Positions 1,370 through 33,175 of a DNA stretch of 64,000 nucleotides are shown one piece after another. The position numbers and the translations under genes are program-made. Each line of letters begins with the position of its first letter. Position 1 is the first letter of the stretch. The stretch is from a virus, in IMG/VR virus record IMGVR_UViG_3300045988_149468, positions 64,001 to 128,000 of that record. One strand, given 5' to 3'. The notes below the pieces were generated by a model. That model was not told the origin of the DNA and made no database searches. It saw only the letters and a list, made by a program, of their open reading frames with translations.

Positions 1370-4300
1370 TTGAGTAAAATACATATGTTAAATGGTAACA
1401 ATTCTAATTCTTTTACAGGCATTCCTTCACTACCTAATAATTTAGTTTTACAAACTATCACACAAGCTAAAGTAAATGAATGGAATAAAAAAATCGGAGA
1501 AAAAGAATTAAATTCTGCATTAGATTCTATCAATAATAAAATATCATCTATTAATAGAGATATACAAACATTAAATAGTGCAGATGAAGTTCATACTGCT
1601 GATATTAAAACTTTAAAAGCTAAATTAAATGAGTTAAATTTAGCTTTAGGAGATATAATTGATACCACATTTGAAAATAATAAGTATTTAAGTAATATAG
1701 CACAAAACATAGGTAAAATAAATGAATTTATCAATAGTGGATACACAGATGCTATAATAAATTTAAATAAGAGACTGGATGGCAAAGCTGATAGTTACAT
1801 TCAATCGACTCCACCACACCCAGAATACAGAAATGTAGCAGATAATAACAACTATAATGTATGGGTTGGAGATTTATGGAGAAATCCTAAAGAAAATAAA
1901 GATTATAAATATGTAAAAATTGAAATTAATCCTAATGCTTATAGTTATTACTGGGAAGAACAAACTGGTGCTATACCAGATGGATTATTTGACATGATAG
2001 ATGGAAAATCAAGTATATATTTTTCTAAACCTTCATCTTATAATGCTAGAGATTGTTGGATATTAGAGAGCGATGATGTACATCCACCTAACAAAATGGG
2101 TACTTTGTTATTCGCTAATGCAACTAGAAAAATGTATGTTGCTAGTGACTGGATTGATTTAATGCAATATGTCACTAAAAACGATTATGAGAATTATATT
2201 AAAAAGATAAATGACTTCATTAATAAAACATATAATAATGAAATTAAAAATCTTAATGATAAAATAGATGGAAAAGCTGATAGTTTTGTACAAGAAACAC
2301 CTCCACATCCCGAATATTTTGGAATAGAAGAAAAAACACAATATGACGGTTGGATAGGAGATTTATGGAGAAAGTCATCTACAGGAGCAGATTATAGATA
2401 TCTACGAAGACAACTTTCTAATGGTAATTATGATTACTACTGGGAGTTACAAACTACTTCAATACCAGATGATCTATTTGATAAAATAGATGGAAAAGCA
2501 TCAATTTATTTCACAAAACCAACATCTTATTCTAAACGAGATTGTTGGATTCTTGAAAACGATAGTGTTCATTACCCAAATAAAAAAGGAACAATTCTTT
2601 TTGCAAATAGATCAAATACAGTATATAATCCAGATGATTGGGTAGATTTATTATCTTATGTGACAGATGATGATTATGATGTTATAAAATCTAAACTTGA
2701 AAATTTTATTAATAATACTTATAACGATGAAATAAAGGATATAAATAATAAAATAGATGGAAAAGCTAATAGTTATGTGCAAGAATATCCACCACATGAT
2801 GAATATTTAAATGTTGAACAAACAAGCGAATATGACGGTTGGTTGGGTGATATTTGGAGAAAAATTTCAAGTGGTGAAGACTTTAAATATGTTAGAATTA
2901 AAAATGTAGATGGAACATACAGTTATCGCTGGGAAGCACAATCAGCATCTATACCTGATAGTTTGTTTGATTTGATAGATGGGAAAGCTACTATATTTTT
3001 TAGTAAACCAGACAGTTATTCAGCAAGAGATTGTTGGATATTAGAAAATGATACAGTGCATCCCCCAAATAAAAAGGGAACAATGTTATTCTCTATTAAA
3101 GATAATGACCATTATGATGCTACTGATTGGGTGGATTTAATATCTTATATAACTAGAGGAGAGTATGAGGATTATAAAAAAGAAGTAGAAAATTGGATTA
3201 ATAATACCTATACTGAAGAAATTAAAAATATAAACAGTAAAATTGATAATAAAGCCGATAGTTATGTGCAAGAAGATAAACCTCACCCAGAGTATAATAA
3301 TATAGCTGAAAATACCGAATATAATGGCTGGCTCGGTGATATTTGGAGAAAAATTTCAAGTGGAGCTGACTATAAATATTTAAGAAGTCAAAATAAAGAT
3401 GGTACATTTAATTATTATTGGGAATTACAAACAACAACTATCCCAGATGATATTTTTGATAAAATAGATGGTAAATCTTCAATTTATTTTAGTAAGCCCA
3501 CAAGCTATTCAATACATGACTGCTGGATACTTGAAAATGATAATGTTCACCCACCTCATAAAAAGGGAACTCTTTTATTTGCAAACAAATCAAATAGTGT
3601 ATATGATGCTGACGATTGGATTGATTTAGTTTCTTATGTAACCGAAGATAAGCATAACGAAATTGTTACTAGATTAAATGAATTTATTAATAATACTTAC
3701 ACAGATGAAATTAAAAGAATAAATAGTAAGATTGATAATAAAGCAAATTCTTATGTTCAAGAAGCTAGACCACATGAAGAATATTATAACGTAACACAAA
3801 ATATTACTTATGATGGTTGGTTGGGTGATATTTGGAGAAAAATTTCAAGTGGTGAAGACTTTAAATATGTTCGTGTACAAGGTACTTCATCTAATACTTA
3901 CACATATAGATGGGAAGCTCAATCTATGTCAGTTCCCGATAGTTTATATGACTTAATTGATGGTAAAGCTACAATTTATTTTAGTAGACCAGATAGCTAT
4001 TCGATAAGAGATTGTTGGATTCTTGAATCAGATGAAATACATCCACCTAATAAAAAAGGTGAAATGTTATTTGCAAAGAGTAGTAATACATCTTATAATT
4101 CAGCGGATTGGGTCGATTTATTAAGTTATATAGACAAAAGTCAACATGATGACTTAGTTAATAGAGTTAATACATTTATTAATAATACCTATACCAATGA
4201 TATTAAAGATATAAACAATAAAATAGATAATAAAGCTAATAGTTATGTTCAAGAAAACTCACCTCATGCTCAATACACTACTTCAAGTAAAGTGACAGAG

Positions 4301-7136: not shown

Positions 7137-7472
7137 ATGGATATTGAAACTATTTTAATATTAATTGTTTTATTATTGGTTTTAATATTTTCAGTATATC
7201 AATTTGTAAAATTAGGCAAAGTAAAACAAATAGAAAATATAAAACAATGGTTAATATATGCTTGTCTTGAAGCTGAAAAAATATTAGGTAGTAAAACAGG
7301 GCAAGTGAAACTTAGATATGTATATGATTTATTTATAAGTAAATTTAAATTTGTATCTTATTTTATATCGTTTGAATTATTTAGTAAATGGGTAGACGAT
7401 TCATTAATAGAAATGAAAGATATGATAAATAACAATGATTCAATTAGAAAAATAGTAGAAGGTGATAAATAA
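7137..7472 (+). CDS. Putative holin-like membrane protein (N-terminal TM, LL-H-like layout)
   Basis: N-terminal TM (ILILIVLLLVLIFSVY) followed by an amphipathic soluble part. Its stop overlaps the endolysin start (TAATG). Confidence 0.4.
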   Translation: MDIETILILIVLLLVLIFSVYQFVKLGKVKQIENIKQWLIYACLEAEKILGSKTGQVKLRYVYDLFISKFKFVSYFISFELFSKWVDDSLIEMKDMINNNDSIRKIVEGDK

Positions 7473-8302
7473 TGACAGTAAATAAACCAGTTATTGTAGA
7501 AAAATGGCAAAAGAAAAATAAATATGGTAGACCAGGAACAAAATTAAATTATACAAAAGTGGCAATACATTACACAGGACAAGCAGATGTTAAAGGTATA
7601 AGTACAGTTAGCTATTTTAACAATGTAGTTGCAAATGGAACAAAAGTTAATGGTAAATACATATATGCTTCAGCACATTTTGTTATTGATTTAGACGGAA
7701 CAATATATCAATTAATACCTCTAAATGAAATGTGCTATTGTACAAATTCAGCTAATAGATATGCTATTGGAGTTGAAGTTGCAACAACAGGAAAAGATAA
7801 TCATTACACAGATGCAACTTATAAATCAATGGTGCATTTATGTGCTTGGTTATGTGATAGAAAAGGACTAAATTGTAAAAAAGATATAATAAGACATACA
7901 GATGTTGTAGGACGTGCTTACAAACTATGCCCTATTTACATGGTTTTAAATCCTAGAAAATACGAACAATTTAGATTAGATTGTTACAATTTAACAAAAG
8001 GTAAAATACAAGTTAAAGATATAGTTAACTGTACAAACGGTAAAGGTAAAATAACTCAAGTTCCTAATACTTCAATAGATAAAAACATCTCAACAAAACA
8101 ACAATTTATAAGAATATTACAAGATGTTAATGTCCATTCAACACCAGATTTCGATGCTAGTTCAATATGTGGTAAAGCCAAAAAAGGTGAGGCATTAACA
8201 ATAATTAAAAAAATTGAAAGAAAAGGAACGGATATGTATTATGTGAAAGCAGGATATTATATAACTGCATCAACAAAATATGTAGAAGTATTTGAAAGAT
8301 AG
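7472..8302 (+). CDS. Endolysin, N-acetylmuramoyl-L-alanine amidase (Amidase_2/PGRP type) with C-terminal binding domain
   Basis: Motifs VAIHYTGQ, ASAHFVIDLDGTIYQ, YAIGVEV and IIRHTDV....KLCP match the zinc-amidase fold. C-terminal ~90 aa is SH3-like. Confidence 0.75.
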   Translation: MTVNKPVIVEKWQKKNKYGRPGTKLNYTKVAIHYTGQADVKGISTVSYFNNVVANGTKVNGKYIYASAHFVIDLDGTIYQLIPLNEMCYCTNSANRYAIGVEVATTGKDNHYTDATYKSMVHLCAWLCDRKGLNCKKDIIRHTDVVGRAYKLCPIYMVLNPRKYEQFRLDCYNLTKGKIQVKDIVNCTNGKGKITQVPNTSIDKNISTKQQFIRILQDVNVHSTPDFDASSICGKAKKGEALTIIKKIERKGTDMYYVKAGYYITASTKYVEVFER

Positions 8303-10796: not shown

Positions 10797-13229
10797 ATGG
10801 CAGAAATTGATATACTTAGTATAAATAATAAAAAAATACAAGATGTAGAAGCTAGAAAAGATATTCAAGTAATTAAAGAAAATAATACTGCAATAAAACA
10901 GGATATAAATGACATTAAAGCTAGTATAGGTACAGAAGCATTAACTACTACTGCTAAAGATTTGAAAGGGGCAGTTAATGAAGTTAGTGCACAATATAAA
11001 GATATTGCGAACTTATCTCTTGCACTAGGAAAAGATGGACTATTATATATTAAAAAACAAGATGGAACACTTATAGGAACTGGTGTTAAAGTTAATAATG
11101 ATACTGATTTATCTAAAGTAACTATGCAAATAAATGGTAATACGTTAATATTATTGAATAATGGAACTCAAATAGCATCTGTAGATTTGCCTAACAACAT
11201 GAGTGCTACCGATGTATCTAACTTAATAAAAAAAGGTGTTTCAGAAACTAACTATAATGCTTTAGATACTACGGATAAACGTATTATAGGTGGAATTAAT
11301 GAAATTAATATACACTTAAACAGTACGGCGAAAAAAACAATCGTAGAAGGAAATAAAATATATTTAGCAAAAAGTGATGGAACAAAATTAGATACAGGAA
11401 CTATATTACCTACAGGTGGAACTGGTAAACCTTATGATGACACTTCCATAAAATCTGATATAAGCAATATTAAAAATGACTTAGGTACTGCACAACTAAC
11501 TACAACTGCTCAAAATGTTAAAGGAGCAATAAATGAAATTGATGCAAAATGCGATGATATTGCAGTCAAAACTATTACAACCGAAGAGAGAACAAAATTA
11601 ACTAACTTAAAAAATTATGATGACACAAGTATAAAAACAGACATAAATAATATTAAGACTAATTTAGGTACTGCACAACTAACTACAACTGCTAAAGATG
11701 TTAAAGGTGCAATTAATGAAGTTAATAAAAAAATTGGAACTGGGGTAGCTTATGATGACACTGCGATAAAATCTGATATAAATACCATCAAAACTAACTT
11801 AGGTACAGACAAATTAAATACAACTGCTAAGGATTTAAAAGGGGCAGTTAATGAACTTAATACACAATATAAAGATATCGCATCTAGGACTATTACAACC
11901 GAAGAGAGAAATAAATTAAATAGTCTAAATAATTATGATGACACAAGTATAAAAAATGATATACAAACAATTAATACACAATTAGGAGATATTGCGAACA
12001 AATTTACAACCGAACAAACAGATAATAATTTTATATTAAAATATGGTGATAAAATAATAGCAACTATTCCTATAAACGGAACATTAGTTAATTATGGTAG
12101 TATAGTTATATCTTGTAATGAAATTTTAGAAATAAACGAAGGTGAAACATTAGACATTGAAGTTTATTTAAGTTCAAAACCTACAAATAATCAATCTATA
12201 GTTATTACAACAAGCAATTCTAATATAACTACATCAGTAAGTGAATTAACTTTTACCCCTAATAACTATGCAACAAGTCAAATTATTACTTTAACTGCTA
12301 TACATGATGTTAGTTCATTTGATGATAAAAATTGTTTAGTTACATTTGCAAGTGAAAATGTAGAAAATATAACTATTACTGTTACTATAAAAAATACTGA
12401 TGTTCAACAGTCACATTATATTACAGATGGATTAAGTTTATACTATGATTTTACAGAAACTCCAACAAACCCAACAACTGTTTATGATAAAGTTAATAAT
12501 GTATCTATATATAATAAAAATTATACAGCTGATAATTATACAAGCAATGGTGTGTATTTGATAAACGGTGGCGGTTCAGAAGCATATAAATTTGGCTCTA
12601 GTAGTGTTAGTGTTTTCGAATATCAAACAATGCCTGAATTTAACAATTTCTTGAATAAAATCAAAGAAGGTAATGGATTGACTATTGAGTATTTCGGACA
12701 ATATATTCCTGTATCTATCATGTATGCATATAATAGTGGGGTTAATGCATCGGGTACAGGAGCAATTGGTGGTGGATATTTAACAAAATACGAGTCTCTA
12801 GGTGGTGTTACCTTTAAATATTTAAATACATCTAATGAAACAACTAGCGTTAGTTTAGCTCAAAGTGATAAAGCAACAAAAGATGGTCAATCAATACTTG
12901 CTTATTCCGCTGATAATAAAGCTGATACTTATATACATCTAGTTATTACTGCTGATGAAACAGGAAAATTAACATGGTATTTAAATGGAAATGTTATGAG
13001 TAATACTGCTACTGCAACTGATTTTGCATCGTGGGATTATGATACTATGTTTAAAGCTAATTATTGTATGCTTGTTAGATGTGGAGTTGAAGATACAAAT
13101 AGACTTATATACCCCGCAACAAGTATAAAAATATATAATAGAGCTTTAATACAAGATGAAATAAAAACTAATTTAGAGTATGAAATAAGCAAAACAAATT
13201 TTGTTAATTCAGCAAGTGTTACTCCCTAG
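10797..13229 (+). CDS. Second tail fibre / receptor-binding protein with LamG-like C-terminal domain
   Basis: SD AAGGAGGT. Five copies of a ~40-60-aa repeat (YDDTSIKxDIxxIKxxLGTAQLTTTAKDxKGAxNE). The C-terminal jelly-roll-like region ends in IKIYNRALIQDEI, typical of Laminin_G_3 domains. Confidence 0.65.
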   Translation: MAEIDILSINNKKIQDVEARKDIQVIKENNTAIKQDINDIKASIGTEALTTTAKDLKGAVNEVSAQYKDIANLSLALGKDGLLYIKKQDGTLIGTGVKVNNDTDLSKVTMQINGNTLILLNNGTQIASVDLPNNMSATDVSNLIKKGVSETNYNALDTTDKRIIGGINEINIHLNSTAKKTIVEGNKIYLAKSDGTKLDTGTILPTGGTGKPYDDTSIKSDISNIKNDLGTAQLTTTAQNVKGAINEIDAKCDDIAVKTITTEERTKLTNLKNYDDTSIKTDINNIKTNLGTAQLTTTAKDVKGAINEVNKKIGTGVAYDDTAIKSDINTIKTNLGTDKLNTTAKDLKGAVNELNTQYKDIASRTITTEERNKLNSLNNYDDTSIKNDIQTINTQLGDIANKFTTEQTDNNFILKYGDKIIATIPINGTLVNYGSIVISCNEILEINEGETLDIEVYLSSKPTNNQSIVITTSNSNITTSVSELTFTPNNYATSQIITLTAIHDVSSFDDKNCLVTFASENVENITITVTIKNTDVQQSHYITDGLSLYYDFTETPTNPTTVYDKVNNVSIYNKNYTADNYTSNGVYLINGGGSEAYKFGSSSVSVFEYQTMPEFNNFLNKIKEGNGLTIEYFGQYIPVSIMYAYNSGVNASGTGAIGGGYLTKYESLGGVTFKYLNTSNETTSVSLAQSDKATKDGQSILAYSADNKADTYIHLVITADETGKLTWYLNGNVMSNTATATDFASWDYDTMFKANYCMLVRCGVEDTNRLIYPATSIKIYNRALIQDEIKTNLEYEISKTNFVNSASVTP

Positions 13230-15153
13230 TGCGGCTACAAGTTATTCTTATACAGAATTACCTTATGCTGTAAATACAATTCCTGCATCTGCTATAAATG
13301 ACTGTGAAATTTTAGGAACTGTTGAGAATGACGAAGTAGCCCAAATTAATGATAATTATATAAGTTGTTATAAAAGTGGAGAAACAAATATAAACATTCA
13401 AGTGAACTATAAAGCATCAAAGATCTTTAACATAGAAGTTCCTTTAAAAGTTATTGATACTGTTGATTATGAAGCAACTTCTACTAGAACAATTGAACCT
13501 ACAGGTATATCAATAGTAAATAAAATTACTGAATTGAAATTAGGGGAAGAATTTGTCCTATTGGCAATACTATATCCTTACCATCCTTATATGGATAATT
13601 TAATTGAGTTTACATCAAGTGATGATTCAATATGTTCTGTTAAGTTTGGTGTTTTAAAAGCTAATAAAATAGGAACTTGTACTATTACTGCAACTGGTAT
13701 TGGAACAAACATATCAGAAAGTTTTAATATAAACATAATAGCGAATGAAGAAGAAAGTTTATTAGATTCGGAGATATATAACGTTTTATTACCTTGTGTT
13801 ACCACAAATGGTCAATTATATAATGACGGATCCAATGAAGAAGAGACAACTTATGCTATCCAAGATTTATTAAGCTATGCAAGTGAAAATAATTATAAAA
13901 AAATAGTATTTCCAAAAGGAACTTATTCTGTAACGGCTGATATTTATGGATCTGATGTCATTGGACCTACATTGTTTTATGTACCATCTAATTTAATAAT
14001 TGATTTTTCAGACGCTATAATTCAAATGCAACCAAATTCACATACTTTATCTCCAAACGGAACTGCTGGAACTGGCGGTGGATATACGACATTTATGTTT
14101 GATAACAATTGTCAAAATAGTAAAATAATAAATGCTGATATTAGAGGTTGTAGAGAATTAATAGATTATGATATAGCAACAACCGGAGAACAATGTAAAA
14201 ATGTAAGTTTTTATGATGCTGTAAACTGTTCTTTAGAAAATTGTAGTATAGGAAATAGTTGTGGTTTTAATATGGCTATGATAAGAAATACATACAATGG
14301 TTGGGATGGAAGAATATTTATAATGCCAAGTAACATAGAGGCTGGAGGAATAGCAGATGACGGTTCAAAAGATGATGTAAATACATCATGGAATTGGAGA
14401 ACTATAAATATGTTAAGTCTAGATAAATTAGGAGATAGACTTAGTTTTGATATCGGAAATTATCAAGGTTGGGGTGGTTATCAAATAGCAGGTAGATTAT
14501 ATGATATCGCTTTCTATGATGAAAATGAAACCTTTATAGAAATTATGAGAAATTGTAGGGTTTATTGTAGATATAATAGACCAAGTAATTCAAAATATTT
14601 TCATATAGTTTTTCATCAAGAAGAACAACCTACAGAAGGTGTTACTGATTATGGATATTTATATACACTTCAAAGTACAAAAGAACCTTATAGATGTTCT
14701 ATAAAGAATTGTGTTATACATGATAACTATTCTATAGGAATAGCTATAGTTGGTGGAAAAAATAATACATTTGAAGGAAATACATTTATAAATAATAAAG
14801 GTCGTGACCCAAATTGTCATCTTGATTATGAAGATGGTAGAGAGGCTATGATAGGCGATATATGGAGATATAATTCATTTGATAGCCGAAGCGGATATTT
14901 ATGTATTATGGCAGGAAACGCTATGACATTTAGAAATAATATATTTAACTGTTCTGTACAATTTACAGGAAGATGTGAAGGTTGGAGAGTTTATAATAAT
15001 AAATTCAATGGTTCAACAATAACTCAAGGAACTCAATCTGATTCGGTTTTTGCTTTTAACTTATTAAATAAAACTACACTTGAAAACCCTTCGTACTATC
15101 ATGGAGAAAATTCTCAATATAAAGTACATTATTTTAATAATACTGTGTTATAA
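13201..15153 (+). CDS. Big_2 (Ig-like) + right-handed beta-helix protein, depolymerase/tailspike-like
   Basis: Big_2-like segments (e.g. FTSSDDSICSVKFGVLKANKIGTCTITATG), then parallel beta-helix repeats (NCVIHDNYSIGIAIVGGKNNTFEGNTFINN). Frame is open from 13189. No SD and no ATG for 130 codons, so it may be made as a +1 frameshift fusion with the preceding fibre. Confidence 0.6.
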   Translation: MLIQQVLLPSAATSYSYTELPYAVNTIPASAINDCEILGTVENDEVAQINDNYISCYKSGETNINIQVNYKASKIFNIEVPLKVIDTVDYEATSTRTIEPTGISIVNKITELKLGEEFVLLAILYPYHPYMDNLIEFTSSDDSICSVKFGVLKANKIGTCTITATGIGTNISESFNINIIANEEESLLDSEIYNVLLPCVTTNGQLYNDGSNEEETTYAIQDLLSYASENNYKKIVFPKGTYSVTADIYGSDVIGPTLFYVPSNLIIDFSDAIIQMQPNSHTLSPNGTAGTGGGYTTFMFDNNCQNSKIINADIRGCRELIDYDIATTGEQCKNVSFYDAVNCSLENCSIGNSCGFNMAMIRNTYNGWDGRIFIMPSNIEAGGIADDGSKDDVNTSWNWRTINMLSLDKLGDRLSFDIGNYQGWGGYQIAGRLYDIAFYDENETFIEIMRNCRVYCRYNRPSNSKYFHIVFHQEEQPTEGVTDYGYLYTLQSTKEPYRCSIKNCVIHDNYSIGIAIVGGKNNTFEGNTFINNKGRDPNCHLDYEDGREAMIGDIWRYNSFDSRSGYLCIMAGNAMTFRNNIFNCSVQFTGRCEGWRVYNNKFNGSTITQGTQSDSVFAFNLLNKTTLENPSYYHGENSQYKVHYFNNTVL

Positions 15154-15174
15154 TGAATAAAAAAAGACATTGTC

Positions 15175-15780
15175 ATGGGGGAAATTATGTTTACAGATTT
15201 AAAACAATTATTAATTCAACAAAAATTAAAAAGAGAACATAAAAATTTTTATATTTATAGACCATCATCAATAAGTTTAGCAAAAACTTCAAAGATACAA
15301 ATAAAAGGAAGTTTAACCTTTAATGATGTATATTCTTCAAACCAAAAAAGAAAATTAAGCATATTAGTTATGGGAGAAGATTCTAAATTAGAAGTTAATG
15401 GAAATTTTTCGTTTTTTAGTGGTTGTAGAGTTGGGGTTTTAAAAGGGGCTACACTTTCATTGGGTAACGGATATATGAATTTTGATTCTAAAATATATTG
15501 CTATAATAATATAAAAATAGGGAATAGAGTTTTTATATCAGAAGGAGTAACAATAATAGATTCAGATGTTCATAGTATATCTAATAAAGATGTATCTGCT
15601 CCTATTGTAATTGGAGATAATGTTTGGATAGGAATAAATGCAACTATATTAAAAGGTGTTACTATTGGAGATGGTGCAGTAATAGGTGCTGGAGCAGTAG
15701 TTACTAAAGATATTCCATCTAAATGTTTGGCTGTAGGAAATCCAGCTAAAGTAATAAAAGAAAATATAGAATGGAAATAG
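15175..15780 (+). CDS. Hexapeptide-repeat (LbH) O-acetyltransferase
   Basis: Left-handed beta-helix hexapeptide repeats (IGDNVWIGINATILKGVTIGDGAVIGAGAVVTKDIPSKCLAVGNPAKVIK), as in maltose/galactoside/sugar O-acetyltransferases. Start may be the second ATG at 15187. Confidence 0.75.
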   Translation: MGEIMFTDLKQLLIQQKLKREHKNFYIYRPSSISLAKTSKIQIKGSLTFNDVYSSNQKRKLSILVMGEDSKLEVNGNFSFFSGCRVGVLKGATLSLGNGYMNFDSKIYCYNNIKIGNRVFISEGVTIIDSDVHSISNKDVSAPIVIGDNVWIGINATILKGVTIGDGAVIGAGAVVTKDIPSKCLAVGNPAKVIKENIEWK

Positions 15781-15806
15781 ACTAGAAATTAATCTAGTCT
15801 ATTTTT
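15781..15806 (+). terminator. Weak hairpin terminator after the acetyltransferase gene
   Basis: ACTAGA (15781-15786) pairs with TCTAGT (15793-15798), followed by CTATTTTTA. Confidence 0.35.
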
Positions 15807-15954
15807 AATACGCAGTTAGTTCGCAATTTAAAAATATTGCGTATATAATGTGATCAACAGAATATTCATTATATATTTTAAATATCATGTATAGAATAAA
15901 CAAATAAAGGATAAATTATTATTAGTTATTCTATTTGTATGTATTTTTATTATA

Positions 15955-16000
15955 ACCCTTTAGTGATTATTTGCTAAAGGGTATTTTTTTTTATTTATTT
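15955..16000 (+). terminator. Hairpin + T9 + ATTTATTT module (copy a)
   Basis: ACCCTTTAG (15955-15963) pairs with CTAAAGGGT (15974-15982), then nine T and ATTTATTT. No annotated gene lies immediately upstream. Confidence 0.5.
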
Positions 16001-16132
16001 GACAATCTTTCAGATATTTGTTATCATAATTAAAGATATAAATAATATTCTCATATTAACTTACATTATCAAATTTTCAATAGAACTATTTTATTTTTTT
16101 AATAGTCCTATTATTTTTTTGTTTAAAATGTA

Positions 16133-16161
16133 TTGAAAATAATAACTAATTATGTTATAAT
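16133..16161 (+). promoter_or_regulatory. Sigma-A-type promoter of recombinase 2
   Basis: TTGAAA (16133-16138), 17-nt spacer, TATAAT (16156-16161). Followed by the AATTAATAAGAGGAG leader also used by the leftward early genes. Confidence 0.55.
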
Positions 16162-16198
16162 TCAATTATAATAATTAATAAGAGGAGAGTAAAGCAAT

Positions 16199-17182
16199 AT
16201 GAAGAATGATAATGAAAAACTAATAAAACAAATAATGAATCATATAAAAAATAATGTTATTACCAAAGATGAAATAGAAAAAATATTATATGAAACTATA
16301 AGAGATTTTAATATTGAAATAAATATTCATCAAAAACATAATAATCAAGATATTCTCGATGAATATAAACAAGATATGGAAACTTTAGATTATTCAAGTG
16401 GAACTATTAGAAACAGAATGTATACCTTAAAATATTTCTTAGATTATATAAACAAAGAGATTCCTCAAATTACAGTAGTTGATTTAAAAGCTTATTTAAA
16501 TTTTAAAAAGAAATCAGTAAAAACTTCAACTATAAATGGATTAATTTCAGTAATAAAATCATTTTTCAGCTGGTTAGTAGAAGAAGAATACATAGATAAA
16601 AATCCAACGAAGAAAATAAGAAAAATAAAAGAACCACAAAGAATTAGAGAGCCTCTGTCTATAGAAGAAATGGAAAATTTAAGAATGTGTTGTAAGACAG
16701 ATAGAGAAAGAGCTTTAGTTGAATTTATGTTAGCGACAGGTATGAGAGTTTCTGAAATTCAAAAGACAAACATATTTGAATTGGATCTTTCTTCAAATAA
16801 ATTAAAAACAATTGGGAAAGGAAACAAAGAAAGAATTATATTATTTAATGATAAATGTAAATTATATTTAAAACAATATTTAGACAATAGAAAAGGTAAA
16901 AATGAAGCTTTGTTTATTTCTGAAAGAAAACCGTACAGAAGACTTGGAGTTAGAGCAATTCAAAAGATATTAACAAATATATCAAAAAGAAAAACAATTC
17001 TTCCCATTGTATATCCTCATAAATTAAGACATACTTTTGCTACATCACTATTTAATAGTGGAGAAGACATTGAAACTGTTCAATTTCTTTTAGGACATGA
17101 AAACATAACAACAACTCAAATATATACAAAAACATCAATGGATAAAGTTAATTATCAATATAATAAATGTTTGATTGTATAA
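16199..17182 (+). CDS. Tyrosine recombinase, XerC/XerD-like (recombinase 2)
   Basis: N-terminal SAM-like domain. Catalytic motifs: ATGMRVSEI (Arg), HKLRHTFATSLF (H-x-x-R), LLGHENITTTQIYT (His...Tyr). Confidence 0.8.
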   Translation: MKNDNEKLIKQIMNHIKNNVITKDEIEKILYETIRDFNIEINIHQKHNNQDILDEYKQDMETLDYSSGTIRNRMYTLKYFLDYINKEIPQITVVDLKAYLNFKKKSVKTSTINGLISVIKSFFSWLVEEEYIDKNPTKKIRKIKEPQRIREPLSIEEMENLRMCCKTDRERALVEFMLATGMRVSEIQKTNIFELDLSSNKLKTIGKGNKERIILFNDKCKLYLKQYLDNRKGKNEALFISERKPYRRLGVRAIQKILTNISKRKTILPIVYPHKLRHTFATSLFNSGEDIETVQFLLGHENITTTQIYTKTSMDKVNYQYNKCLIV

Positions 17183-17223
17183 ATATTCTAAAATAAAGTT
17201 TTTAACCTAACTTTTTAGATCAA

Positions 17224-17261
17224 CTCTTAGTTTTTACTAAGGGAATTTTTTTTATTTATTT
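17224..17261 (+). terminator. Hairpin + T8 + ATTTATTT module (copy b), terminator of recombinase 2
   Basis: CTCTTAGT pairs with ACTAAGGG around a TTTT loop, then AA, eight T and ATTTATTT. Confidence 0.55.
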
Positions 17262-17315
17262 TTAGTAATATTTTTAAGGAATATCACATATAATTCAGTA
17301 AAAGGAGGGATAATT

Positions 17316-17501
17316 ATGAAAAATAAAAAATCTTTTGAGGTAAGTTTCAAGAATAATATGGAAGACACTCTTTTATATTCCTGGTTAGAAGAAAAATTTA
17401 TAATTCATGGAAATAAGAGTGCCTATGTTAAATATGTTTTAAGAGAAAAAATGTACTCTGAATTAAATCAATCTACTCAAGTAATCAAAAGCAAAAGCTA
17501 A
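17316..17501 (+). CDS. Small basic protein, possible ribbon-helix-helix DNA binder
   Basis: SD AAAGGAGGG; 61 aa. Predicted beta-strand (KSFEVSF) followed by two helices (EDTLLYSWLEEK; KSAYVKYVLREKM). Fold assignment is an inference only. Confidence 0.35.
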   Translation: MKNKKSFEVSFKNNMEDTLLYSWLEEKFIIHGNKSAYVKYVLREKMYSELNQSTQVIKSKS

Positions 17502-17591
17502 TCCAAACCAAAACATTGCTTCACCCATTTTATATCACCTCGTTTAATCATAATTATATTATTAGTTTAACCTTAAAGGAGGATTTTATAC

Positions 17592-17966
17592 ATGAAATCT
17601 TATACTTTTGAAGAATATAAACTAATGATGAATAATAAAGAATCACTTCTTGATAAATTTATTTCAAGTCTAAATCAAATTGAATATAAAAAATTAATTA
17701 TTCTGATAGCTTTGTTTATGCATAAAAATTCAATAGTATATTGTGCTACAACTGAAGCAGAGATATCTATGATGGCTAATCAAATATTGCATATTTTAAT
17801 GATATTCAGTAAGTATGGATGTATGTGTATGGGAGTTAAAGCTATTATTGAAAATGCATTACAAGGTGCAAATTTTCGACAAGCTACAACATCTGGTATT
17901 CAATATTTTTTGATATATATTCTTTTAACATTATATCCTAAATTATTTGCTATGATTAAAATGTAA
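17592..17966 (+). CDS. Small membrane protein (signal-anchor-like segment + two hydrophobic helices; VirB2/TrbC-like layout)
   Basis: SD AAGGAGGA; 124 aa. Hydrophobic segments: KKLIILIALFM, ILHILMIFSKYGCMCMGVKAII and IQYFLIYILLTLYPKLFAMI. Confidence 0.45.
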   Translation: MKSYTFEEYKLMMNNKESLLDKFISSLNQIEYKKLIILIALFMHKNSIVYCATTEAEISMMANQILHILMIFSKYGCMCMGVKAIIENALQGANFRQATTSGIQYFLIYILLTLYPKLFAMIKM

Positions 17967-17978
17967 GGAGGTTATATT

Positions 17979-18230
17979 ATGGAAGAAAAGATTGATAAAT
18001 TAATAAATATCATGGATAATTTTTTACACCCAATAGAATCATTTAAAGAATTTGGGTATCAACTTTTAATTAACATTGATAAATTTTCATTTAATATATG
18101 TCTTTTAGCAGGTTTTATAGCTTTATTACTTTATGTATTTGGGTATGATAAAGGTAAAAAATGGGCATTTATAATCCCTTGTGTATATTTGATTTTAAAT
18201 ATTATCATAGGAGTAGTTGCAAATGCTTAA
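17979..18230 (+). CDS. Small two-TM membrane protein (VirB3/ConD-like position)
   Basis: SD AGGAGGT; 83 aa. Two TM helices (FNICLLAGFIALLLYVFGY; WAFIIPCVYLILNIIIGVVA). Overlaps the start of the ATPase gene. Confidence 0.45.
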   Translation: MEEKIDKLINIMDNFLHPIESFKEFGYQLLINIDKFSFNICLLAGFIALLLYVFGYDKGKKWAFIIPCVYLILNIIIGVVANA

Positions 18231-20427
18231 CATTCCTATTTCTAAATATATAGAAATTAAACAACAAAAATATATTTATCTAAAACTTATACCCACTAAA
18301 TCAATTAAAAATAATCAAACATATGATATATTAAAATTAGTTAATAAAATGTTTATAAATCTAAATAAACAAATAAAAATTCAAGATAAAAAATTAATAA
18401 TACAAACTCAAATGAAAGCTAGTTATTATATCTACATTACTAAAGAGAAAATCAACTTCTATTTTATTGTTCCTGAAGTATTCTATTCTAAATTTAAAAT
18501 TAAATTTAAAGAAGTATGGAAATCGGTTCAAATAGAGGAATGTAATTATATACCACACATTGAAAACGGATTACAATATCAACTAATATATAAGAAGAAA
18601 GATTTTCTTTCTAGTAATGCAGATATGAGAAATAATGAATTATTAAATGCAAATATGACAATAATGGAATTATTAGAAAATCAAGAAGAAGTGGGAATAT
18701 TATATAATTTCCACCCAATTTCAGAAAAACAAATCAATTATTTTAAAATTTCATGTCAAAAATTCATCAGAGAATATAAGGAAAATTCCATAAAATATAC
18801 GAATAATCAATATTTTAATATAATAATTAAATGTTTAGATTATATGATAGAATTTATCAACTCAACGTTAAACTTTATATTTAATACTAAACAAGTAAAA
18901 AAAATAACACCACAAAAATATTCAGAAAGCACTATAAGAAAAAGTAAATCTGAAATGTGTAAAACTCAAATAGTATTAAATATAAAAGGAAAAAATCAAA
19001 ACCATTCAAAGACATTACTTGAAGGTTTAGTTAATTCATATAGTGAAATTTCAGATGATAATGAATTTATATGTAAAAAGGTTAAGAATGGAAATATAAA
19101 GTCATTAAATACTTCAATATATGAGTGTTCTAATTTTATAAGTTTACCTGGAGATAGTTTAATCAAAGAATATAATAATATAGAACATAATAATATTTAT
19201 GATAAGTCAATTCCTAATTGTTTGAAGAGAGGGCAAGTCCTTCTCGGAAATTCTTTAAAGAATACAAATGTTTATTATTCATCTGATAAAGAATGTAGTA
19301 GATTAGGTAAAGTATTTATAGGAGGAATGGGAAGTGGAAAAACCTACTCAATGATTAAATTAGCCAAACAAATAATAAATAAAGGTGATGGATTAGTCGT
19401 GTTAGATATTATTAAAAATTGTGAATTAGCAGATAGCATTAAGAAAATAACGCCTAAAGATAAATTAATTGAAATAGATTGTGCAAATATAGATCAACTA
19501 CAAGGGTTTTGCTTTAATGAATTAACTTATAATAAATTAGACGAATATGATAAATTAGCTAAATGCATGGAAAAAGCTAATCAACTTCATATTTTGTTAA
19601 ATACAATTAATACAGATACTAAATTAACACCTAGAATGGTTAGGTATTTTTATTCAGCTTGCACAATAGTCTTTTATAGTAATTTTAATGCTAGTTTTAG
19701 AGAGATAACGAGGGTACTTATGTATCCTAAAGAACGAAAGAAAGCCTTAGAATCGCTTACAGAAAGGCAACTTTTTTTACTTCAAGATGAAATAAATAAT
19801 TTAAAAGAGTTGGATAAAGAAAATAAGAACGGAACAATAGAAAACTATGATTCTAAAATAGATGGAATAATTGATAGAGTTAGTATTTTACAAACTAATT
19901 TATATACCAAGTTAGCATTTAATAAATCAGCAGATAAGAATATTAATTTTGTTGAAGCATTAAGTAAAAATAAAGTAATATTAATTAAAGCTAAAGAAAG
20001 TAATTTCACTAATAGAAGTATTAGAGACTTAATAGCAACATTTTTTATTAATAAGGTATGGTTAAGCAAACAATTAAATGCTAATACTAGAACAGAAATA
20101 TTCATAGATGAGATCAATTTATTCCCAACAGCACAAAATATATTCCAAGACACATTAACTGAATGTAGAAAATATAATTTTATACCTACAATTTCATTAC
20201 ACTTCTTTAATCAATGTAATAAAAAATGTAAAGAAGCCATATTAAATTCTGGAATGAATTTTATATTATTAGCTGGTGCAGACATAAGAAATTTTTATGA
20301 ATTAGAAACATTATTTAATAAAGAAGGGTATGATAAGATTGATTTTGTTAATCTCAAAAGATATCAAGCATTATGTTTAATTAGGAATGAAGAAACTGTA
20401 TATTCATCTTTTGTGGTAAATATGTAA
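18223..20427 (+). CDS. FtsK/HerA/VirB4-superfamily P-loop ATPase
   Basis: ATG at 18223 lies 9 nt after AGGAG. Walker A is GGMGSGKTYS (nt 19321-19350), mid-protein. Walker B is EIFIDEINLF (~20095-20125), followed by CRKYNFIPTISLH, which resembles the RK-x-(hydrophobic)-TQ arginine-finger block of this superfamily. A long non-ATPase N-terminal half (~360 aa) matches VirB4 architecture. Confidence 0.6.
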   Translation: MLNIPISKYIEIKQQKYIYLKLIPTKSIKNNQTYDILKLVNKMFINLNKQIKIQDKKLIIQTQMKASYYIYITKEKINFYFIVPEVFYSKFKIKFKEVWKSVQIEECNYIPHIENGLQYQLIYKKKDFLSSNADMRNNELLNANMTIMELLENQEEVGILYNFHPISEKQINYFKISCQKFIREYKENSIKYTNNQYFNIIIKCLDYMIEFINSTLNFIFNTKQVKKITPQKYSESTIRKSKSEMCKTQIVLNIKGKNQNHSKTLLEGLVNSYSEISDDNEFICKKVKNGNIKSLNTSIYECSNFISLPGDSLIKEYNNIEHNNIYDKSIPNCLKRGQVLLGNSLKNTNVYYSSDKECSRLGKVFIGGMGSGKTYSMIKLAKQIINKGDGLVVLDIIKNCELADSIKKITPKDKLIEIDCANIDQLQGFCFNELTYNKLDEYDKLAKCMEKANQLHILLNTINTDTKLTPRMVRYFYSACTIVFYSNFNASFREITRVLMYPKERKKALESLTERQLFLLQDEINNLKELDKENKNGTIENYDSKIDGIIDRVSILQTNLYTKLAFNKSADKNINFVEALSKNKVILIKAKESNFTNRSIRDLIATFFINKVWLSKQLNANTRTEIFIDEINLFPTAQNIFQDTLTECRKYNFIPTISLHFFNQCNKKCKEAILNSGMNFILLAGADIRNFYELETLFNKEGYDKIDFVNLKRYQALCLIRNEETVYSSFVVNM

Positions 20428-20433
20428 AATAAT

Positions 20434-20460
20434 AGGAGGATAATTCCTCCTTTTTCTTTA
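20434..20460 (+). terminator. Rho-independent terminator after the ATPase gene
   Basis: AGGAGGA (20434-20440) pairs with TCCTCCT (20445-20451), followed by TTTTCTTT. Confidence 0.65.
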
Positions 20461-20794
20461 TTTTTCTTGAATTATTTTTAGCATAATACTCACTCAAATT
20501 GCTATAACCTTGATATGAACATTCCACAATTAATTCTCAGTCGCTATCGCTCCTTTCATAATTGTTACATATATCATAGCATATGATTTTTGTCTTAAAA
20601 AATATTCCAATTTAACAATATTTTAACATTTATATTATTTATTAATTTGAAGACAATATTAATATACACTTTTACCAACCAATTATTAATTATTATATTC
20701 AATATATACATTGACAAATAATAATTAATATGAATGCTTATGTTACTATCTTATTAATTACTATGTAAGTATAATTTTAATATTAGTATTTTAA

Positions 20795-20838
20795 AAGGGT
20801 TATCGTAATTGATAACCCTTCTTTTTTTTTATTTATTT
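20795..20838 (+). terminator. Hairpin + T9 + ATTTATTT module (copy c) at the convergence point of the two transcription blocks
   Basis: AAGGGTTATC (20795-20804) pairs with GATAACCCTT (20811-20820), then C, nine T and ATTTATTT. Lies 5-10 nt from the end of the last leftward gene, so it may act bidirectionally. Confidence 0.55.
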
Positions 20839-20845
20839 TTAATTG

Positions 20846-21226
20846 TTAATCTGTTGTATCTTGTATCATTTCAATTATATATTTCTCTGGTATTGTGTTA
20901 ATTTCTATAAGATTTTGACAAGCTCTAATACCAACAAAGAAAAATATTATAACTATTATTGGCGTGATTACAGCACAACCTATTGTTATTACATCATCAT
21001 AATATGTATCTTCTGACCATTTAATAAGTTTGACAGACAAATATATAGATATTATTATTGTTAATATTGATATAACTAACCAAAATATACTAGTGTAAGT
21101 TATATATTTAGTTATTCTAACCATTAAATCTTGTAAGTAAGGAATTATATTACTTGATGACCAATCAATTGCTATTCCGAACTTATCACATATATGATCT
21201 AAAACTTTAATCGCTTCATTACTCAT
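20846..21226 (-). CDS. Membrane protein (two TM helices)
   Basis: SD AAGGAGGG. Hydrophobic helices: IFWLVISILTIIISIYLSV and AVITPIIVIIFFFVGI. Confidence 0.5.
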   Translation of the reverse strand: MSNEAIKVLDHICDKFGIAIDWSSSNIIPYLQDLMVRITKYITYTSIFWLVISILTIIISIYLSVKLIKWSEDTYYDDVITIGCAVITPIIVIIFFFVGIRACQNLIEINTIPEKYIIEMIQDTTD

Positions 21227-31303: not shown

Positions 31304-33175
31304 TTATTTTGTAAATTTTTTATATTTTGTTAAAATCATTTCTTTATCTTCTAATTCTATCCATTTGTCACCTTCTTTTTTCTTTTTATTCTTAATTTGA
31401 TATCCTTTAATACTAATCACATCACCTATTTCTAATGGATCTTGCTTAAAATTCTTTTTATATATTTTTACATCTTTTAATTTACCATTTCCTATACCAT
31501 ATAAAGTAATTCTAGGTGTGTATTTAGTATTTATATCTGTAATAATACATTTATTTCCCATAGATTTATCTATTATATTACAATTACCACAAAATTCAAA
31601 ATAGGTTTTAATTAATTCTATAGTGTCTGTTCCATTATCCTTAATATGTTTTTCTATTGCAATTAACATTGGTAATATATCAATAAAAATATATTTTTTT
31701 TCTGTTTCTCTTTCAGCATATTTACTAAATATTTTATTTAAGCTAGGATATTTATCTTTTGATAATTGTTTTTTACCATAAAATGTTTGATAAAATTCAT
31801 ATACTTTTAATAGTTTTTGAACACCACCAAATTCACTAAAGAAATTCAATGATATTAATATTGTCATTTGTTTAGAGTTTATTTTTTTACCTATGTCAAC
31901 TAATAATTCTACAAAAGAATTATAATTATTATCTTTTAAAGAATATAATAATTCACCTGCATTTTTATTTAAGTTTTTAATTGATTTTATACCTTTATAT
32001 ATAGAATTGCTCTCTCTATCTAAAAAATATTCAGATCTGGAAAATCTAAATTTAGGATTTTTAATTTCTATATTGAAATATTCCATTTCTTTGGTCAATC
32101 TAGCAGTTCTTTCAGTATCATCTTCATATTCATTTAATGCTACGGTATAATATTCTAAAGGATAATGAGATTTTAAATAAGCACCATATAAACTATCATA
32201 AGCGTAAGATAAAGAGTGACTAGCATTAAAACTGTAATGAGAGGCATTTTCAATTACTTGCCATGTTTCATTAAAACCTTCCTCTTTTCCTACCACATTG
32301 ATCCAACCTTTTTTTAATTTAATTTTTAATTCTTCTAATTCTTTTTCTTTAAACTTCTTTTTGCTAATTTTTTTAATTATTGTATATGTTTCACTTTCAT
32401 CTATACCTAACCATATCAAATATTTCATTATAGATTCTTGATACATAAGGTAATGATAACTATCTTCTAATAAATTATCTAGTTTTTTTACTCCTGTTGT
32501 ATATTCTTTTCTTTCTATAAAATTATTTAATAAAGATGCAAATCCTGGTCTAATAGAGGCTACAAAAGCCGACATTTCTGCCAAACTTTTAGGTTTATAT
32601 TTCATTATTAAATCAGTAGCAAATTTACTATCAGCTTGATTTATAGAACAGGTTAATCCTTTCTCATATATATTCCATGTTTTATCATCTAATAATTTTG
32701 ATAATTCAGTAGTCGTAGGTATTAAAATATTTGCTAATTTACAAACATCTTTTATAATTTTCCATATACTAACTTGTAAAATGTCATTTTTAAGATATTT
32801 ATATTTATCACAATTAATTCCATCTATATTGCAAACAAATACATCTCCCGCTTTTAATAAACCTATCTCCTCACTTATAGGTTGAGATAATAATAAAGTA
32901 GAACATGGACTTTGTGATACAGATTCTATTGTTCCGACAAAGTGCTTACTCTCTTCAATTATTTTGTTCCAATTCTCATCATCTATATAATTATCTAAAT
33001 CTTTTGCTACTTCATTATAATCATTAATATTTAATCCTATTGCTTTACAATACAATCTAAATGCACTAGCTTTTTGCAAAGGTTTAAAACTTAACATCCA
33101 ATGACAATTATCTTCACCTAATAATTTCTTTGAAGCATCAATAAATGGTTGTTGTTCAGCAACATTTGTATCCAC
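31304..33175 (-). CDS. dnaE: DNA polymerase III alpha subunit (DnaE type), exon 2
   Basis: Contains Pol III alpha fingers/HhH-type blocks (e.g. FNASHSLSYAYDSLYGAYLKSHYPLEYY). Frame begins directly at the intron 3' end (GTG GAT ACA = VDT). Confidence 0.7.
   Translation of the reverse strand: MDTNVAEQQPFIDASKKLLGEDNCHWMLSFKPLQKASAFRLYCKAIGLNINDYNEVAKDLDNYIDDENWNKIIEESKHFVGTIESVSQSPCSTLLLSQPISEEIGLLKAGDVFVCNIDGINCDKYKYLKNDILQVSIWKIIKDVCKLANILIPTTTELSKLLDDKTWNIYEKGLTCSINQADSKFATDLIMKYKPKSLAEMSAFVASIRPGFASLLNNFIERKEYTTGVKKLDNLLEDSYHYLMYQESIMKYLIWLGIDESETYTIIKKISKKKFKEKELEELKIKLKKGWINVVGKEEGFNETWQVIENASHYSFNASHSLSYAYDSLYGAYLKSHYPLEYYTVALNEYEDDTERTARLTKEMEYFNIEIKNPKFRFSRSEYFLDRESNSIYKGIKSIKNLNKNAGELLYSLKDNNYNSFVELLVDIGKKINSKQMTILISLNFFSEFGGVQKLLKVYEFYQTFYGKKQLSKDKYPSLNKIFSKYAERETEKKYIFIDILPMLIAIEKHIKDNGTDTIELIKTYFEFCGNCNIIDKSMGNKCIITDINTKYTPRITLYGIGNGKLKDVKIYKKNFKQDPLEIGDVISIKGYQIKNKKKKEGDKWIELEDKEMILTKYKKFTK

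Follow-up and report, generated by a model that had tools for sequence, protein, structure and literature searches.

The closest phage system described so far is the 'DNA translocation operon' that Pathria et al. identified informatically in 2012 in the Bacillus thuringiensis phage 0305phi8-36 (PMC3357382). In this operon orf200 specifies a CloDF13 MobC-type relaxase, orf201 a 'coupling ATPase' devoid of transmembrane (TM) helices, orf203 a VirB6-like protein and orf207 an MreB-like protein; the homologues of orf200, orf201 and orf207 in phage SPO1 are gp27.3, gp27.4 and gp27.9, respectively (PMC3357382). Outside the phages, the archaeal Ced and Ted systems are reduced type IV secretion systems (T4SS), with a VirB2-like pilin, small two-TM proteins and a VirB4/HerA-like ATPase (PMC9905601). 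Classical monoderms are considered to lack pilins of the T4SS type, with the Patescibacteria cited as the exception (PMC12857230, PMC9905601). Here we analyze a block of genes at positions 15781-20845 of a 64-kb window, by which we mean the whole stretch of DNA analyzed, namely positions 64,001-128,000 of the viral record IMGVR_UViG_3300045988_149468, which belongs to a ~140-kb element. A first-pass annotation had taken this block for an accessory island, possibly a separate integrative element, and had stated that none of the roles it entertained was a described phage function. We found that four genes of the block, encoding a small basic protein (p61), a pilin-like membrane protein (p124), a two-TM protein (p83) and an ATPase with a VirB4-like predicted fold, form a conserved module; by its sequence relationships this module appears to be a reduced variant of the little-known phage T4SS-like module represented by the above operon, and is not wholly undescribed. 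We put at about an even chance the further proposal that it is a reduced, T4SS-derived membrane machine of Firmicutes phages and phage-plasmids, most likely used for virion-independent DNA translocation.

The block contains five open reading frames (ORFs), all on the plus strand: a tyrosine recombinase of 327 aa (16199-17182), p61 of 61 aa (17316-17501), p124 of 124 aa (17592-17966), p83 of 83 aa (17979-18230) and the ATPase (18217-20427), whose start is overlapped by the p83 gene. The ATPase is 736 aa long from its TTG start and 734 aa from the ATG at 18223, which is the start used in database copies. Our ORF map places all five at the coordinates given by the first-pass annotation, whose motifs, AT-rich spacers and terminators are likewise all real. 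The conserved unit extends from 17316 to ~20600 and comprises p61, p124, p83 and the ATPase. In the window the coding strand switches at ~20.8 kb, and the block therefore lies at the meeting point of the structural/tail arm and the replication arm, the latter with genes for a split Pol III alpha, a DnaB-like helicase and RNR.

Identical copies of the ATPase occur on ~140-kb metagenomic contigs, and relatives at 66-68% identity come from Romboutsia, Intestinibacter and Clostridium samples, on contigs of ~65-78 kb, 112 kb and ~140 kb. These relatives preserve the four genes in constant order, with products of 59-62, 124-128, 83-90 and 736-750 aa. According to tblastn comparisons, what they have in common is the four module proteins (57-84% identity), an endolysin and a few replication-arm genes. 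Their flanks differ from group to group: in the 75-kb elements the module is bordered by tail genes and a holin/amidase pair, in the 140-kb group by the recombinase upstream and holin/amidase genes downstream, and in the 112-kb group by ParM/ParR-like genes directly upstream, with the order recombinase, ParM/ParR-like genes and module in locus L027. A ParM-like ALP_N gene and a Rep gene identify the 75-kb elements as phage-plasmids. Further afield, the three-gene core (pilin-like protein, small membrane protein, ATPase) is present with unrelated neighbors in the Clostridium perfringens phage phiCp-D (locus L001) and in the Terrisporobacter phage TPDSL_ph2, as well as in a 58-kb C. botulinum plasmid that has terminase genes, a C. 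tetani plasmid (L006) and a C. beijerinckii plasmid (L012). It also occurs in metagenomic contigs at 24-30% ATPase identity, where the proteins upstream of the ATPase match our profiles or have a like architecture; thus, the upstream partners in L020 matched the pilin-like profile at 95.7% and the two-TM profile at 92.6%, and that in L021 matched the pilin-like profile at 90.7%. A nucleotide search of phage records with the region 15.0-21.5 kb gave no match.

In all, the module is found on hundreds of contigs with its genes at full length. Each of the five window genes has a dN/dS value in the range 0.08-0.19, which denotes purifying selection. The hosts here are gut Clostridia of the Romboutsia and Intestinibacter type, and those named in the matches are almost all spore-forming Firmicutes. 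Neighboring genes are of the plasmid maintenance type found on transfer backbones, i.e. ParM/Alp, ParR-like, TubZ and Xer-/MrpR-type recombinases, rather than defence genes. An actin-like gene adjoins the module in L015, L026 and L027 and lies ~3 kb away in phiCp-D, and SPO1 gp27.9 shows a relationship to the ParM/Alp proteins encoded close to the module in phiCp-D and next to it in L015. Near distant versions of the module we observed a TubZ-like tubulin (L021, 3219-4301, minus strand), and an MrpR-type recombinase along with an NlpC/P60 hydrolase (L020, 13137-14126 and 14245-15090). No convincing att-type repeats flank the block, the only repeats being the T-rich tails of three similar terminators. 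Every relative examined keeps the four genes in synteny and under purifying selection, and the flanking repeats are terminator tails only; contrary to the first-pass interpretation, the block is therefore neither an island of sporadic occurrence nor an integrative element carried along by the phage.

The ATPase displays a Walker A motif, GGMGSGKTYS (369-378), followed by IFIDE at 628, CRKYNF at 650 and TISLH at 658. Over its full length it matches phrog_5156 (E = 7e-72), a family without functional annotation, and an exhaustive search of 1.84 billion clusters recovered 392 representatives of the family, nearly all of 750-800 aa. An alignment of 70 diverse members shows K242, E303, G374-K375 of Walker A, M474, R507, R554 and D631-E632 of Walker B to be invariant. 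Hydropathy analysis detects no TM helix. The AF2 model, built from the alignment of these 70 sequences (pLDDT 90.9, pTM 0.76), shows an N-terminal alpha/beta domain of ~360 aa followed by a C-terminal RecA-type ATPase domain. When this model was compared with the PDB using Foldseek, the top match was full-length R388 TrwK/VirB4 (E = 8e-14 to 3e-12 over ~860 columns), followed by TrwB (E ~1e-11 over ~445 columns, in the C-terminal domain only) and then HerA (C-terminal half). The C-terminal domain of Thermoanaerobacter VirB4 (4ag5/4ag6) was matched with a target TM-score of 0.67, and the HerA-type defence ATPases SIR2-HerA and DptH were also among the structural matches, while a viral structure library yielded uncharacterised Bacillus-phage proteins only. 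At the sequence level, the family profile recovered weak matches to the FtsK-HerA superfamily from the PDB, namely DptH, DotL, B204, TrwB, HerA and the VirB4 C-terminal domain; the single ATPase sequence gave no match in the PDB, and none in NCBIfam. The Pfam TrwB_AAD_bind model reaches 15.9 bits in the window ATPase against a cut-off of 20.5, in the Walker A region only, and is the most frequent match among 60 family members (23 of them at E <= 0.01), with two distant members just passing at 22.3 and 23.6 bits in the Walker B region. A faint match of a single distant member to DUF8128 was not reproduced. These observations support the placement of this ATPase in the FtsK-HerA superfamily, much as the first-pass annotation had it in naming a VirB4/HerA/FtsK-type enzyme. 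We conclude that it forms a family of its own, which has no TM anchor, is predicted to fold into two domains in the manner of VirB4, and apparently lies outside the VirB4 and coupling-protein sequence families.

The product of the gene preceding p83, p124, has a hydropathy profile with the h-region of a leader and two further hydrophobic helices. More precisely, it combines a leader of ~52 aa, which includes the h-region and ends in a signal-peptidase-type site, with a mature part of ~72 aa predicted to adopt a helix-loop-helix structure; AF2 places the helices at 55-90 and 95-122 with a pLDDT of 75-80. Profile searches recovered 103 relatives, none with a Pfam domain. In the family alignment the sites are of the A-x-A type, such as AYAG, AHAG and AFAN, with IVYC|ATTE in the window protein, and the mature part has two hydrophobic helices around an invariant glycine (G92) and an invariant proline (P116) in helix 2. 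A connection to T4SS pilins comes from the plasmid pCLK, in which the protein encoded directly before an ATPase of this family is annotated as TrbC/VirB2 and matches Pfam TrbC (PF04956) at 28.5 bits against a cut-off of 27.9; hhalign aligns the p124 profile to this protein over the whole mature region with a probability of 90.6% (E = 1.3e-6). As to a fuller T4SS in pCLK, the annotation of the surrounding region is uninformative. Likewise, when 48 p124 members were compared with all 24,736 Pfam models, the top recurrent matches were T4SS_pilin (PF18895; 9 members) and TrbC (8 members), all below threshold with a best E of ~1e-3; the window protein itself matches neither model. The p124 profile also finds SPO1 gp29.1 (73.7%) and Tsamsa gp260 (56.8%) at moderate levels. 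By its architecture, and with remote homology to T4SS pilins, the designation of p124 as a putative VirB2/TrbC-type prepilin is supported, and to this extent so is the earlier comparison with 'pilin-like/VirB2'. In the C. beijerinckii plasmid, and at this locus alone, a signal peptidase I gene (lepB, 2609-3124) lies ~2 kb upstream of the module, an arrangement that recalls the dedicated TraF peptidase by which TrbC is processed in IncP plasmids.

The other small membrane protein, p83, has two strong hydrophobic helices with hydropathy peaks of 2.29 and 2.59, so that the first-pass count of two small membrane proteins stands. Its family consists of 60 two-TM hairpins with an invariant G55 in a basic loop. 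Like VirB3, it is a short two-TM protein encoded directly upstream of the ATPase gene, and this arrangement is retained in the relatives. As VirB3 tethers VirB4 to the membrane, we propose by analogy that p83 may serve as the membrane anchor of the ATPase; the earlier description of p83 as VirB3-like is borne out for position and architecture only, there being no homology signal. A match of SPO1 gp27.5 to the p83 alignment was dropped as circular, given that gp27.5 is itself in that alignment. The first protein of the module, p61, is net basic, with 11 K+R against 7 D+E, matches phrog_4223 (E = 3.5e-6) and has a dN/dS of ~0.12. In L007, L013 and L015, as in the plasmids of C. botulinum, C. tetani and C. 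beijerinckii, a homologue of p61 is encoded ahead of the pilin-like protein, and residues S10, F11, S35 and K39 are invariant. No match was found in Pfam or the PDB, including a PDB profile search, and from its sequence pattern p61 is possibly a ribbon-helix-helix regulator or an accessory protein.

The link to the operon of Pathria et al. is provided by the ATPase. With hhalign the family profile matches the pCLK ATPase, SPO1 gp27.4 (733 columns) and gp257 of phage Tsamsa (locus L005) with 100% probability, all being full-length members, and 0305phi8-36 orf201 with 99.9% (675 columns). The claim that no described phage function was involved is overturned by these matches, since orf201 and gp27.4 belong to this family. 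In 0305phi8-36 the set consists of an actin-like gene, a small protein, a leader-plus-two-TM protein, a five-TM VirB6-like protein, a tiny TM protein, the ATPase and a nicking/relaxase protein, with orf204 having the leader and two TM helices, orf203 the five TM helices and orf202 the single one. SPO1 gp27.3 and Tsamsa gp256, both located after the ATPase gene, are relaxase-like and homologous to each other (E = 5e-24).

These features suggest a scheme in which p124 is made as a long-leader prepilin, inserted into the membrane and cut by signal peptidase to yield a two-helix, VirB2-type subunit of ~70 aa, while the two-TM hairpin of p83 would tether the soluble ATPase to the membrane. The ATPase would oligomerise in the manner of VirB4 and hydrolyse ATP by means of K375, D631/E632 and the conserved arginines. 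The work so performed might be the extraction of the pilin-like subunit and its assembly into an envelope-spanning fibre or conduit, or the driving of DNA across the membrane. In this scheme p61 would probably act as a small DNA-binding regulator or accessory factor, and an antisense mini-ORF and a downstream hairpin RNA, described below, would probably add further control. The biological role would then most likely be contact-dependent, virion-independent translocation of the phage or phage-plasmid genome, an idea that goes back to Pathria et al. (2012). We rank DNA translocation first because the fuller versions of the module have relaxase and VirB6-like genes and because its neighbors are plasmid-backbone genes.

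Several results weigh against this reading. The TM-score of the ATPase model to full-length VirB4 is low (0.36), no VirB4 model of Pfam or NCBIfam matches the ATPase and none appears among the Pfam matches of 60 family members, and hhalign comparisons with R751 TrbE and TraG and with TcpF, TcpA and TcpB of pCW3 reveal Walker-level similarity only, the probabilities for TrbE and TcpF being 3-4% and confined to the Walker region. On the side of the small proteins, the connection between p124 and TrbC passes through one protein that is only 0.6 bit above the Pfam cut-off, and hhalign finds no similarity of p124 to R751 TrbC or to TcpD/TcpE; the p124 model gave no significant Foldseek match, short helical hairpins exceeding the power of that method. 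For p83, no VirB3 Pfam match is seen in 29 members at E values up to 1, and the hhalign probabilities are 0.1% with R751 TrbD and at most 2.2% with TcpD/TcpE. A VirB6-type platform is needed for canonical pilus biogenesis and DNA transfer, and tblastn searches of the window, which covers 64 kb of the ~140-kb element, with R751 and pCW3 proteins found no homologue of a relaxase, coupling protein, VirB6 or VirB8; the window also lacks a wall hydrolase and any protein with at least three TM helices. The first-pass annotation was thus right that this is not a complete conjugation system. Similarly, no homologues of TcpM, of the proposed relaxase (SPO1 gp27.3, Tsamsa gp256) or of further transfer proteins of R751 and pCW3 were found in the window or in the Clostridial loci. 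Relaxase and VirB6-like functions may be supplied in trans or dispensed with. Finally, no conjugative-type pili are known from Firmicutes (PMC9905601, PMC12857230), and deletion of orfs 200-207 from 0305phi8-36 caused no growth defect in the laboratory (PMC3357382).

That non-essentiality of the homologous operon would also be expected of a system for superinfection exclusion or for defence against phages and plasmids, in which a membrane-tethered HerA/FtsK-type ATPase, made with its small membrane partners in the prophage or plasmid state, blocks or expels incoming DNA. The block possesses terminators of its own along with a plausible promoter, and is located among late, lysis and lysogeny-type genes, the usual site of morons; SIR2-HerA and DptH appear among the structural matches of its ATPase. 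PADLOC returned mad8 as the only match of the ATPase, a weak one (E = 5.5e-5) restricted to the ATPase domain and of superfamily level only, and has no family for the small proteins. Moreover, the partner p124 bears T4SS-pilin signatures, the fuller versions include a relaxase-like gene, and the module has partition and resolution genes, not defence islands, for neighbors. The family is also kept in SPO1-like phages, which are lytic (PMC3357382) and in which exclusion of the prophage type fits less well. On balance we regard exclusion or defence as unlikely, and place it second, after DNA translocation. The same partition genes bring up a third reading, whereby the machine would work with an actin- or tubulin-like partition system in segregating or anchoring DNA, positioning or pumping the phage-plasmid genome, for instance during division or into the forespore. 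ParM/Alp or TubZ genes indeed recur by the module, in phiCp-D, L015, L026/L027 and L021 and as SPO1 gp27.9 and 0305phi8-36 orf207, the hosts named in the matches are almost all spore-formers, as noted above, and the ATPase belongs to the superfamily that unites FtsK/SpoIIIE with HerA. However, the leader and signal-peptidase-type site of p124 imply an extracytoplasmic product, the closest fold of the ATPase is that of VirB4 rather than FtsK, no partition or Rep gene is present in the window, and the adjacency may only reflect the clustering of plasmid backbone genes. We therefore rank segregation third and think it improbable.

There is least to be said for the view that the block is a separate integrative element, consisting of a recombinase and its cargo at the end of the late arm, or else a decaying conjugation remnant without function. 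In its favor, the GC content of the block is 22.4% against 25.7% for the window, similar terminators with a common T-rich tail bound it, and the recombinase is adjacent both here and in the 140-kb relatives. Yet the 75- and 112-kb relatives, and other elements besides, have the module without the recombinase, what repeats there are at the flanks are the low-complexity tails of terminators and not att sites, and purifying selection, full-length genes and invariant catalytic residues across hundreds of contigs are not what decay would leave; we hold this to be very improbable indeed.

The recombinase itself belongs to the tyrosine recombinases, as the first-pass annotation had it: it matches Pfam Phage_integrase (E = 2.9e-35) together with SAM-like N-terminal domains, scores 184-209 bits with the NCBIfam XerA/XerC/XerD models, which is under the equivalog cut-offs, and retains the R...HxxR...H...Y catalytic set as R183 (read by eye), H274-x-x-R277, H299 and Y308. 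It is 89% identical in L013 and is not beside the module in L007 and L015. In the tblastn comparison it is common to the 140-kb group only, other neighbors taking its place in the 75-kb and 112-kb relatives. Because it is absent from those relatives it does not belong to the cassette as the first-pass annotation supposed; judged by sequence, it appears to be a XerC/D/XerA-like neighbor outside the conserved module, with a probable role in plasmid multimer resolution or integration. In L027 it adjoins the ParM/ParR-like genes. The product of Tsamsa gp255 (L005, 7511-8527), two genes past the ATPase of this family, is weakly similar to the window recombinase (E = 0.007), suggesting that such a neighbor recurs in a very distant phage.

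The block is further distinguished by its non-coding features. Terminator-like hairpins are enriched in it, with five observed against 1.0 +/- 1.1 expected, which upholds the claim that it has its own terminators. On the plus strand, a hairpin with a T-tail at 15955-15982 stands in the 418-nt AT-rich spacer 5' of the recombinase gene, marking the left edge of the block, another lies at 17224-17243, 3' of the recombinase gene, and a third at 20795-20820 marks the right edge, before the switch to the minus-strand arm. These three have different stems and a nearly identical tail, TTTTTTTTTATTTATTT (at 15980-16000, 17241-17261 and 20818-20838), with the first and last of them bracketing the block. 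A bidirectional terminator hairpin, AGGAGGATAATTCCTCCT, counted on each strand, directly follows the ATPase stop codon (20434-20451). As regards the claim of a dedicated sigma-A promoter, the candidate at 16133-16161, TTGAAA-17-TATAAT with a TG, is plausible only, because promoter-like matches in the block are at chance level (55 against 62.8 +/- 8.4 in shuffled sequences). The intergenic spacers, described earlier as long, AT-rich and ORF-free, are AT-rich in three of four cases: 15781-16198, 17183-17315 and 20428-20845 have a GC content of 17.7%, 19.5% and 20.3%, respectively, against the window value of 25.7%, whereas 17502-17591 is at 27.8%. Nor are they all empty, for 17502-17591 overlaps an antisense mini-ORF and 20428-20845 contains a conserved structured element.

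The mini-ORF (17463-17528, minus strand) encodes a hydrophobic peptide of 21 aa, MGEAMFWFGLAFAFDYLSRLI, behind a strong ribosome-binding site (RBS), GAGGTGAT, and overlaps the 3' end of p61. It is divergent from p124, and as the two start codons are only 63 nt apart the two transcripts must overlap. The 90-nt spacer between p61 and p124 is 80-83% identical across relatives, i.e. more than its coding flanks, and the peptide is kept in four lineages (the window, L013, L015 and L007), with differences distributed over codon positions as 31/17/45, a coding-type pattern. Similar tiny hydrophobic ORFs with an RBS are present at the matching place and in the matching orientation in phiCp-D and in the C. 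tetani and C. beijerinckii plasmids, starting on the minus strand at 5209 of L001, 4286 of L006 and 4841 of L012. The peptide might act in the manner of a type I toxin or be a small membrane subunit, and by analogy we infer that its layout relative to p124 resembles a type I toxin-antitoxin or antisense regulatory arrangement.

The structured element (20488-20600, minus strand) lies ~70 nt past the ATPase stop codon and occupies a constant position in all close relatives, at 74-80% identity. RNAalifold folds it into a hairpin of ~88 nt. Across seven distinct sequences, paired cells make up 95.5% of the total, as compared with 23-42% in the slid controls, and the covariation includes compensatory double changes in four of the eight pairs of helix 3. 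Several G-U pairs exist on the minus strand only; because of these the hairpin is better formed on that strand, which suggests a convergent RNA terminating at the bidirectional terminator. Going by this pattern, the element is possibly a convergent small RNA that ends there. On the plus strand it is followed by a conserved AAATATTCCAATTTAACAA..TTTTAAC. A Rfam scan of 15.5-21.3 kb detected no family, and a covariance model of the hairpin matched the seven close relatives only, with no match alongside distant modules or elsewhere in the window; the element thus appears specific to this lineage.

Around the block we noted several other genes. Directly before it, on the plus strand of 13201-15780, are a beta-helix tail-spike-like protein (650 aa) and a hexapeptide-repeat acyltransferase (201 aa), the latter of which could be a receptor- or surface-modifying enzyme of the seroconversion type. 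A homologue of Amidase_2-type endolysins (7472-8302, plus strand) is encoded ~8 kb upstream of the module, and in the relatives L007, L013 and L025 a holin and an amidase are encoded directly downstream of it, which points to local rearrangement around a fixed module. On the other side, the convergent arm opens with a 126-aa membrane protein (20846-21226, minus strand; phrog_23747, E = 4e-25), which has 48-58% identity to counterparts in L013 and L015 and is near the module in L015. Further into this arm Pol III alpha is apparently divided between two minus-strand ORFs, 31304-33175 and 34515-35720, comprising a piece with the PHP and N-terminal part and a piece with the finger and HHH regions, with a 333-aa ORF between them (33464-34465); an intron, intein or homing-endonuclease interruption is possibly responsible. 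The replication arm also holds an ISL3-family transposase and an IS605 OrfB/TnpB protein with a Cas12f-like TNB domain (56532-57845 and 60248-61369, both minus strand). TnpB genes are likewise found near the module in L007-L010 and L014, and an ISL3 transposase gene is situated 1.5 kb from the ATPase gene in L024.

The strongest form of the proposed reading is that a minimal machine of VirB2-like pilin and VirB4-like ATPase builds a conjugative-type fibre or conduit through the monoderm envelope and moves the phage genome or other DNA from cell to cell without virions. We consider this decidedly unlikely; if true, it would amount to a hybrid of the phage and conjugation lifestyles and to the first VirB2-type pilus in Firmicutes. 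If phages of Clostridium and Bacillus indeed conserve a VirB2-like prepilin together with an ATPase of VirB4 fold, this challenges the notion that T4SS pilins are absent from monoderms. The module is widespread, being found on hundreds of contigs, in gut Clostridia phage-plasmids and also in model phages such as SPO1. Recent publications on T4SS leave out phage systems, the December 2025 review of T4SS nomenclature never mentions phages, and in the phage-plasmid survey of Pfeifer et al., where conjugation genes were sought with CONJscan, the available part of the text mentions neither VirB4 nor a module of this kind. With only three proteins in its core, the machine is small enough for reconstitution, which could bring out the minimal needs of VirB4-driven pilin extraction or DNA translocation and bear on virion-independent phage spread; if it is an exclusion system instead, it would represent a new defence architecture made from T4SS parts. 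The module is more interesting than a generic accessory island, but not categorically new.

Comparison with the canonical VirB2-VirB3-VirB4 core, as exemplified by TrbC-TrbD-TrbE of R751 and TrwL-TrwM-TrwK of R388, reveals the same gene order, similar sizes, an overlapping junction between small gene and ATPase gene, a two-domain VirB4-like ATPase fold and a long-leader prepilin with a two-helix mature part. The order of pilin-like protein, small membrane protein and ATPase noted by the first-pass annotation is indeed conserved. In contrast, the hidden Markov models of VirB4, TrbC and VirB3 are below threshold or give no match for the window proteins; the ATPase has the predicted two-domain architecture and fold of the VirB4 family and falls outside its sequence models. 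The module also differs from canonical T4SS in its phage context and monoderm host, and in that the window has no VirB6, VirB8, VirB1, coupling protein or relaxase. Coupling proteins of the VirD4/TraG/TrwB type have an N-terminal TM anchor that the ATPase lacks, its predicted N-terminal domain being alpha/beta; no relaxase gene adjoins the ATPase gene in the window or in the Clostridial loci, whereas one is present in SPO1, Tsamsa and 0305phi8-36. The Tcp system of pCW3, also of a Clostridium mobile element, shares the arrangement of two small membrane proteins, TcpD and TcpE, directly upstream of a large VirB4-type ATPase, TcpF. Unlike the window module, the Tcp locus has TcpA (coupling protein), TcpC (VirB8), TcpH (VirB6), TcpG and TcpM (relaxase), and no homology links TcpD/TcpE to p124/p83, while that between TcpF and our ATPase is of Walker level only.

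The archaeal Ced and Ted systems resemble the module in having no relaxase or coupling protein and in being made of components without recognizable similarity to canonical VirB proteins; they differ in that they have a VirB6-like channel (CedA/TedA), are chromosomal and cellular, and have been shown experimentally to mediate import. The phage operon of 0305phi8-36 and SPO1 comes closest. The two share the ATPase family over its full length, and in 0305phi8-36, as here, a small protein heads the set and small membrane proteins precede the ATPase, with orf204 having the architecture of p124; actin-like partition genes, part of the operon in these phages, adjoin the module in relatives of the window. 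Differences are seen in the hosts and elements, which here are gut Clostridia and phage-plasmids, and in the absence from the window of the MobC-type relaxase (orf200, gp27.3), the VirB6-like orf203 and the actin-like gene (orf207, gp27.9). Pathria et al. read the ATPase as a coupling protein of the VirD4/TraG type and identified no pilin-like partner, whereas in our analysis its best full-length fold match is VirB4. The family of the ATPase had thus been recognised in Bacillus phages by 2012; the antisense mini-ORF and the covarying hairpin are additions of the present analysis.

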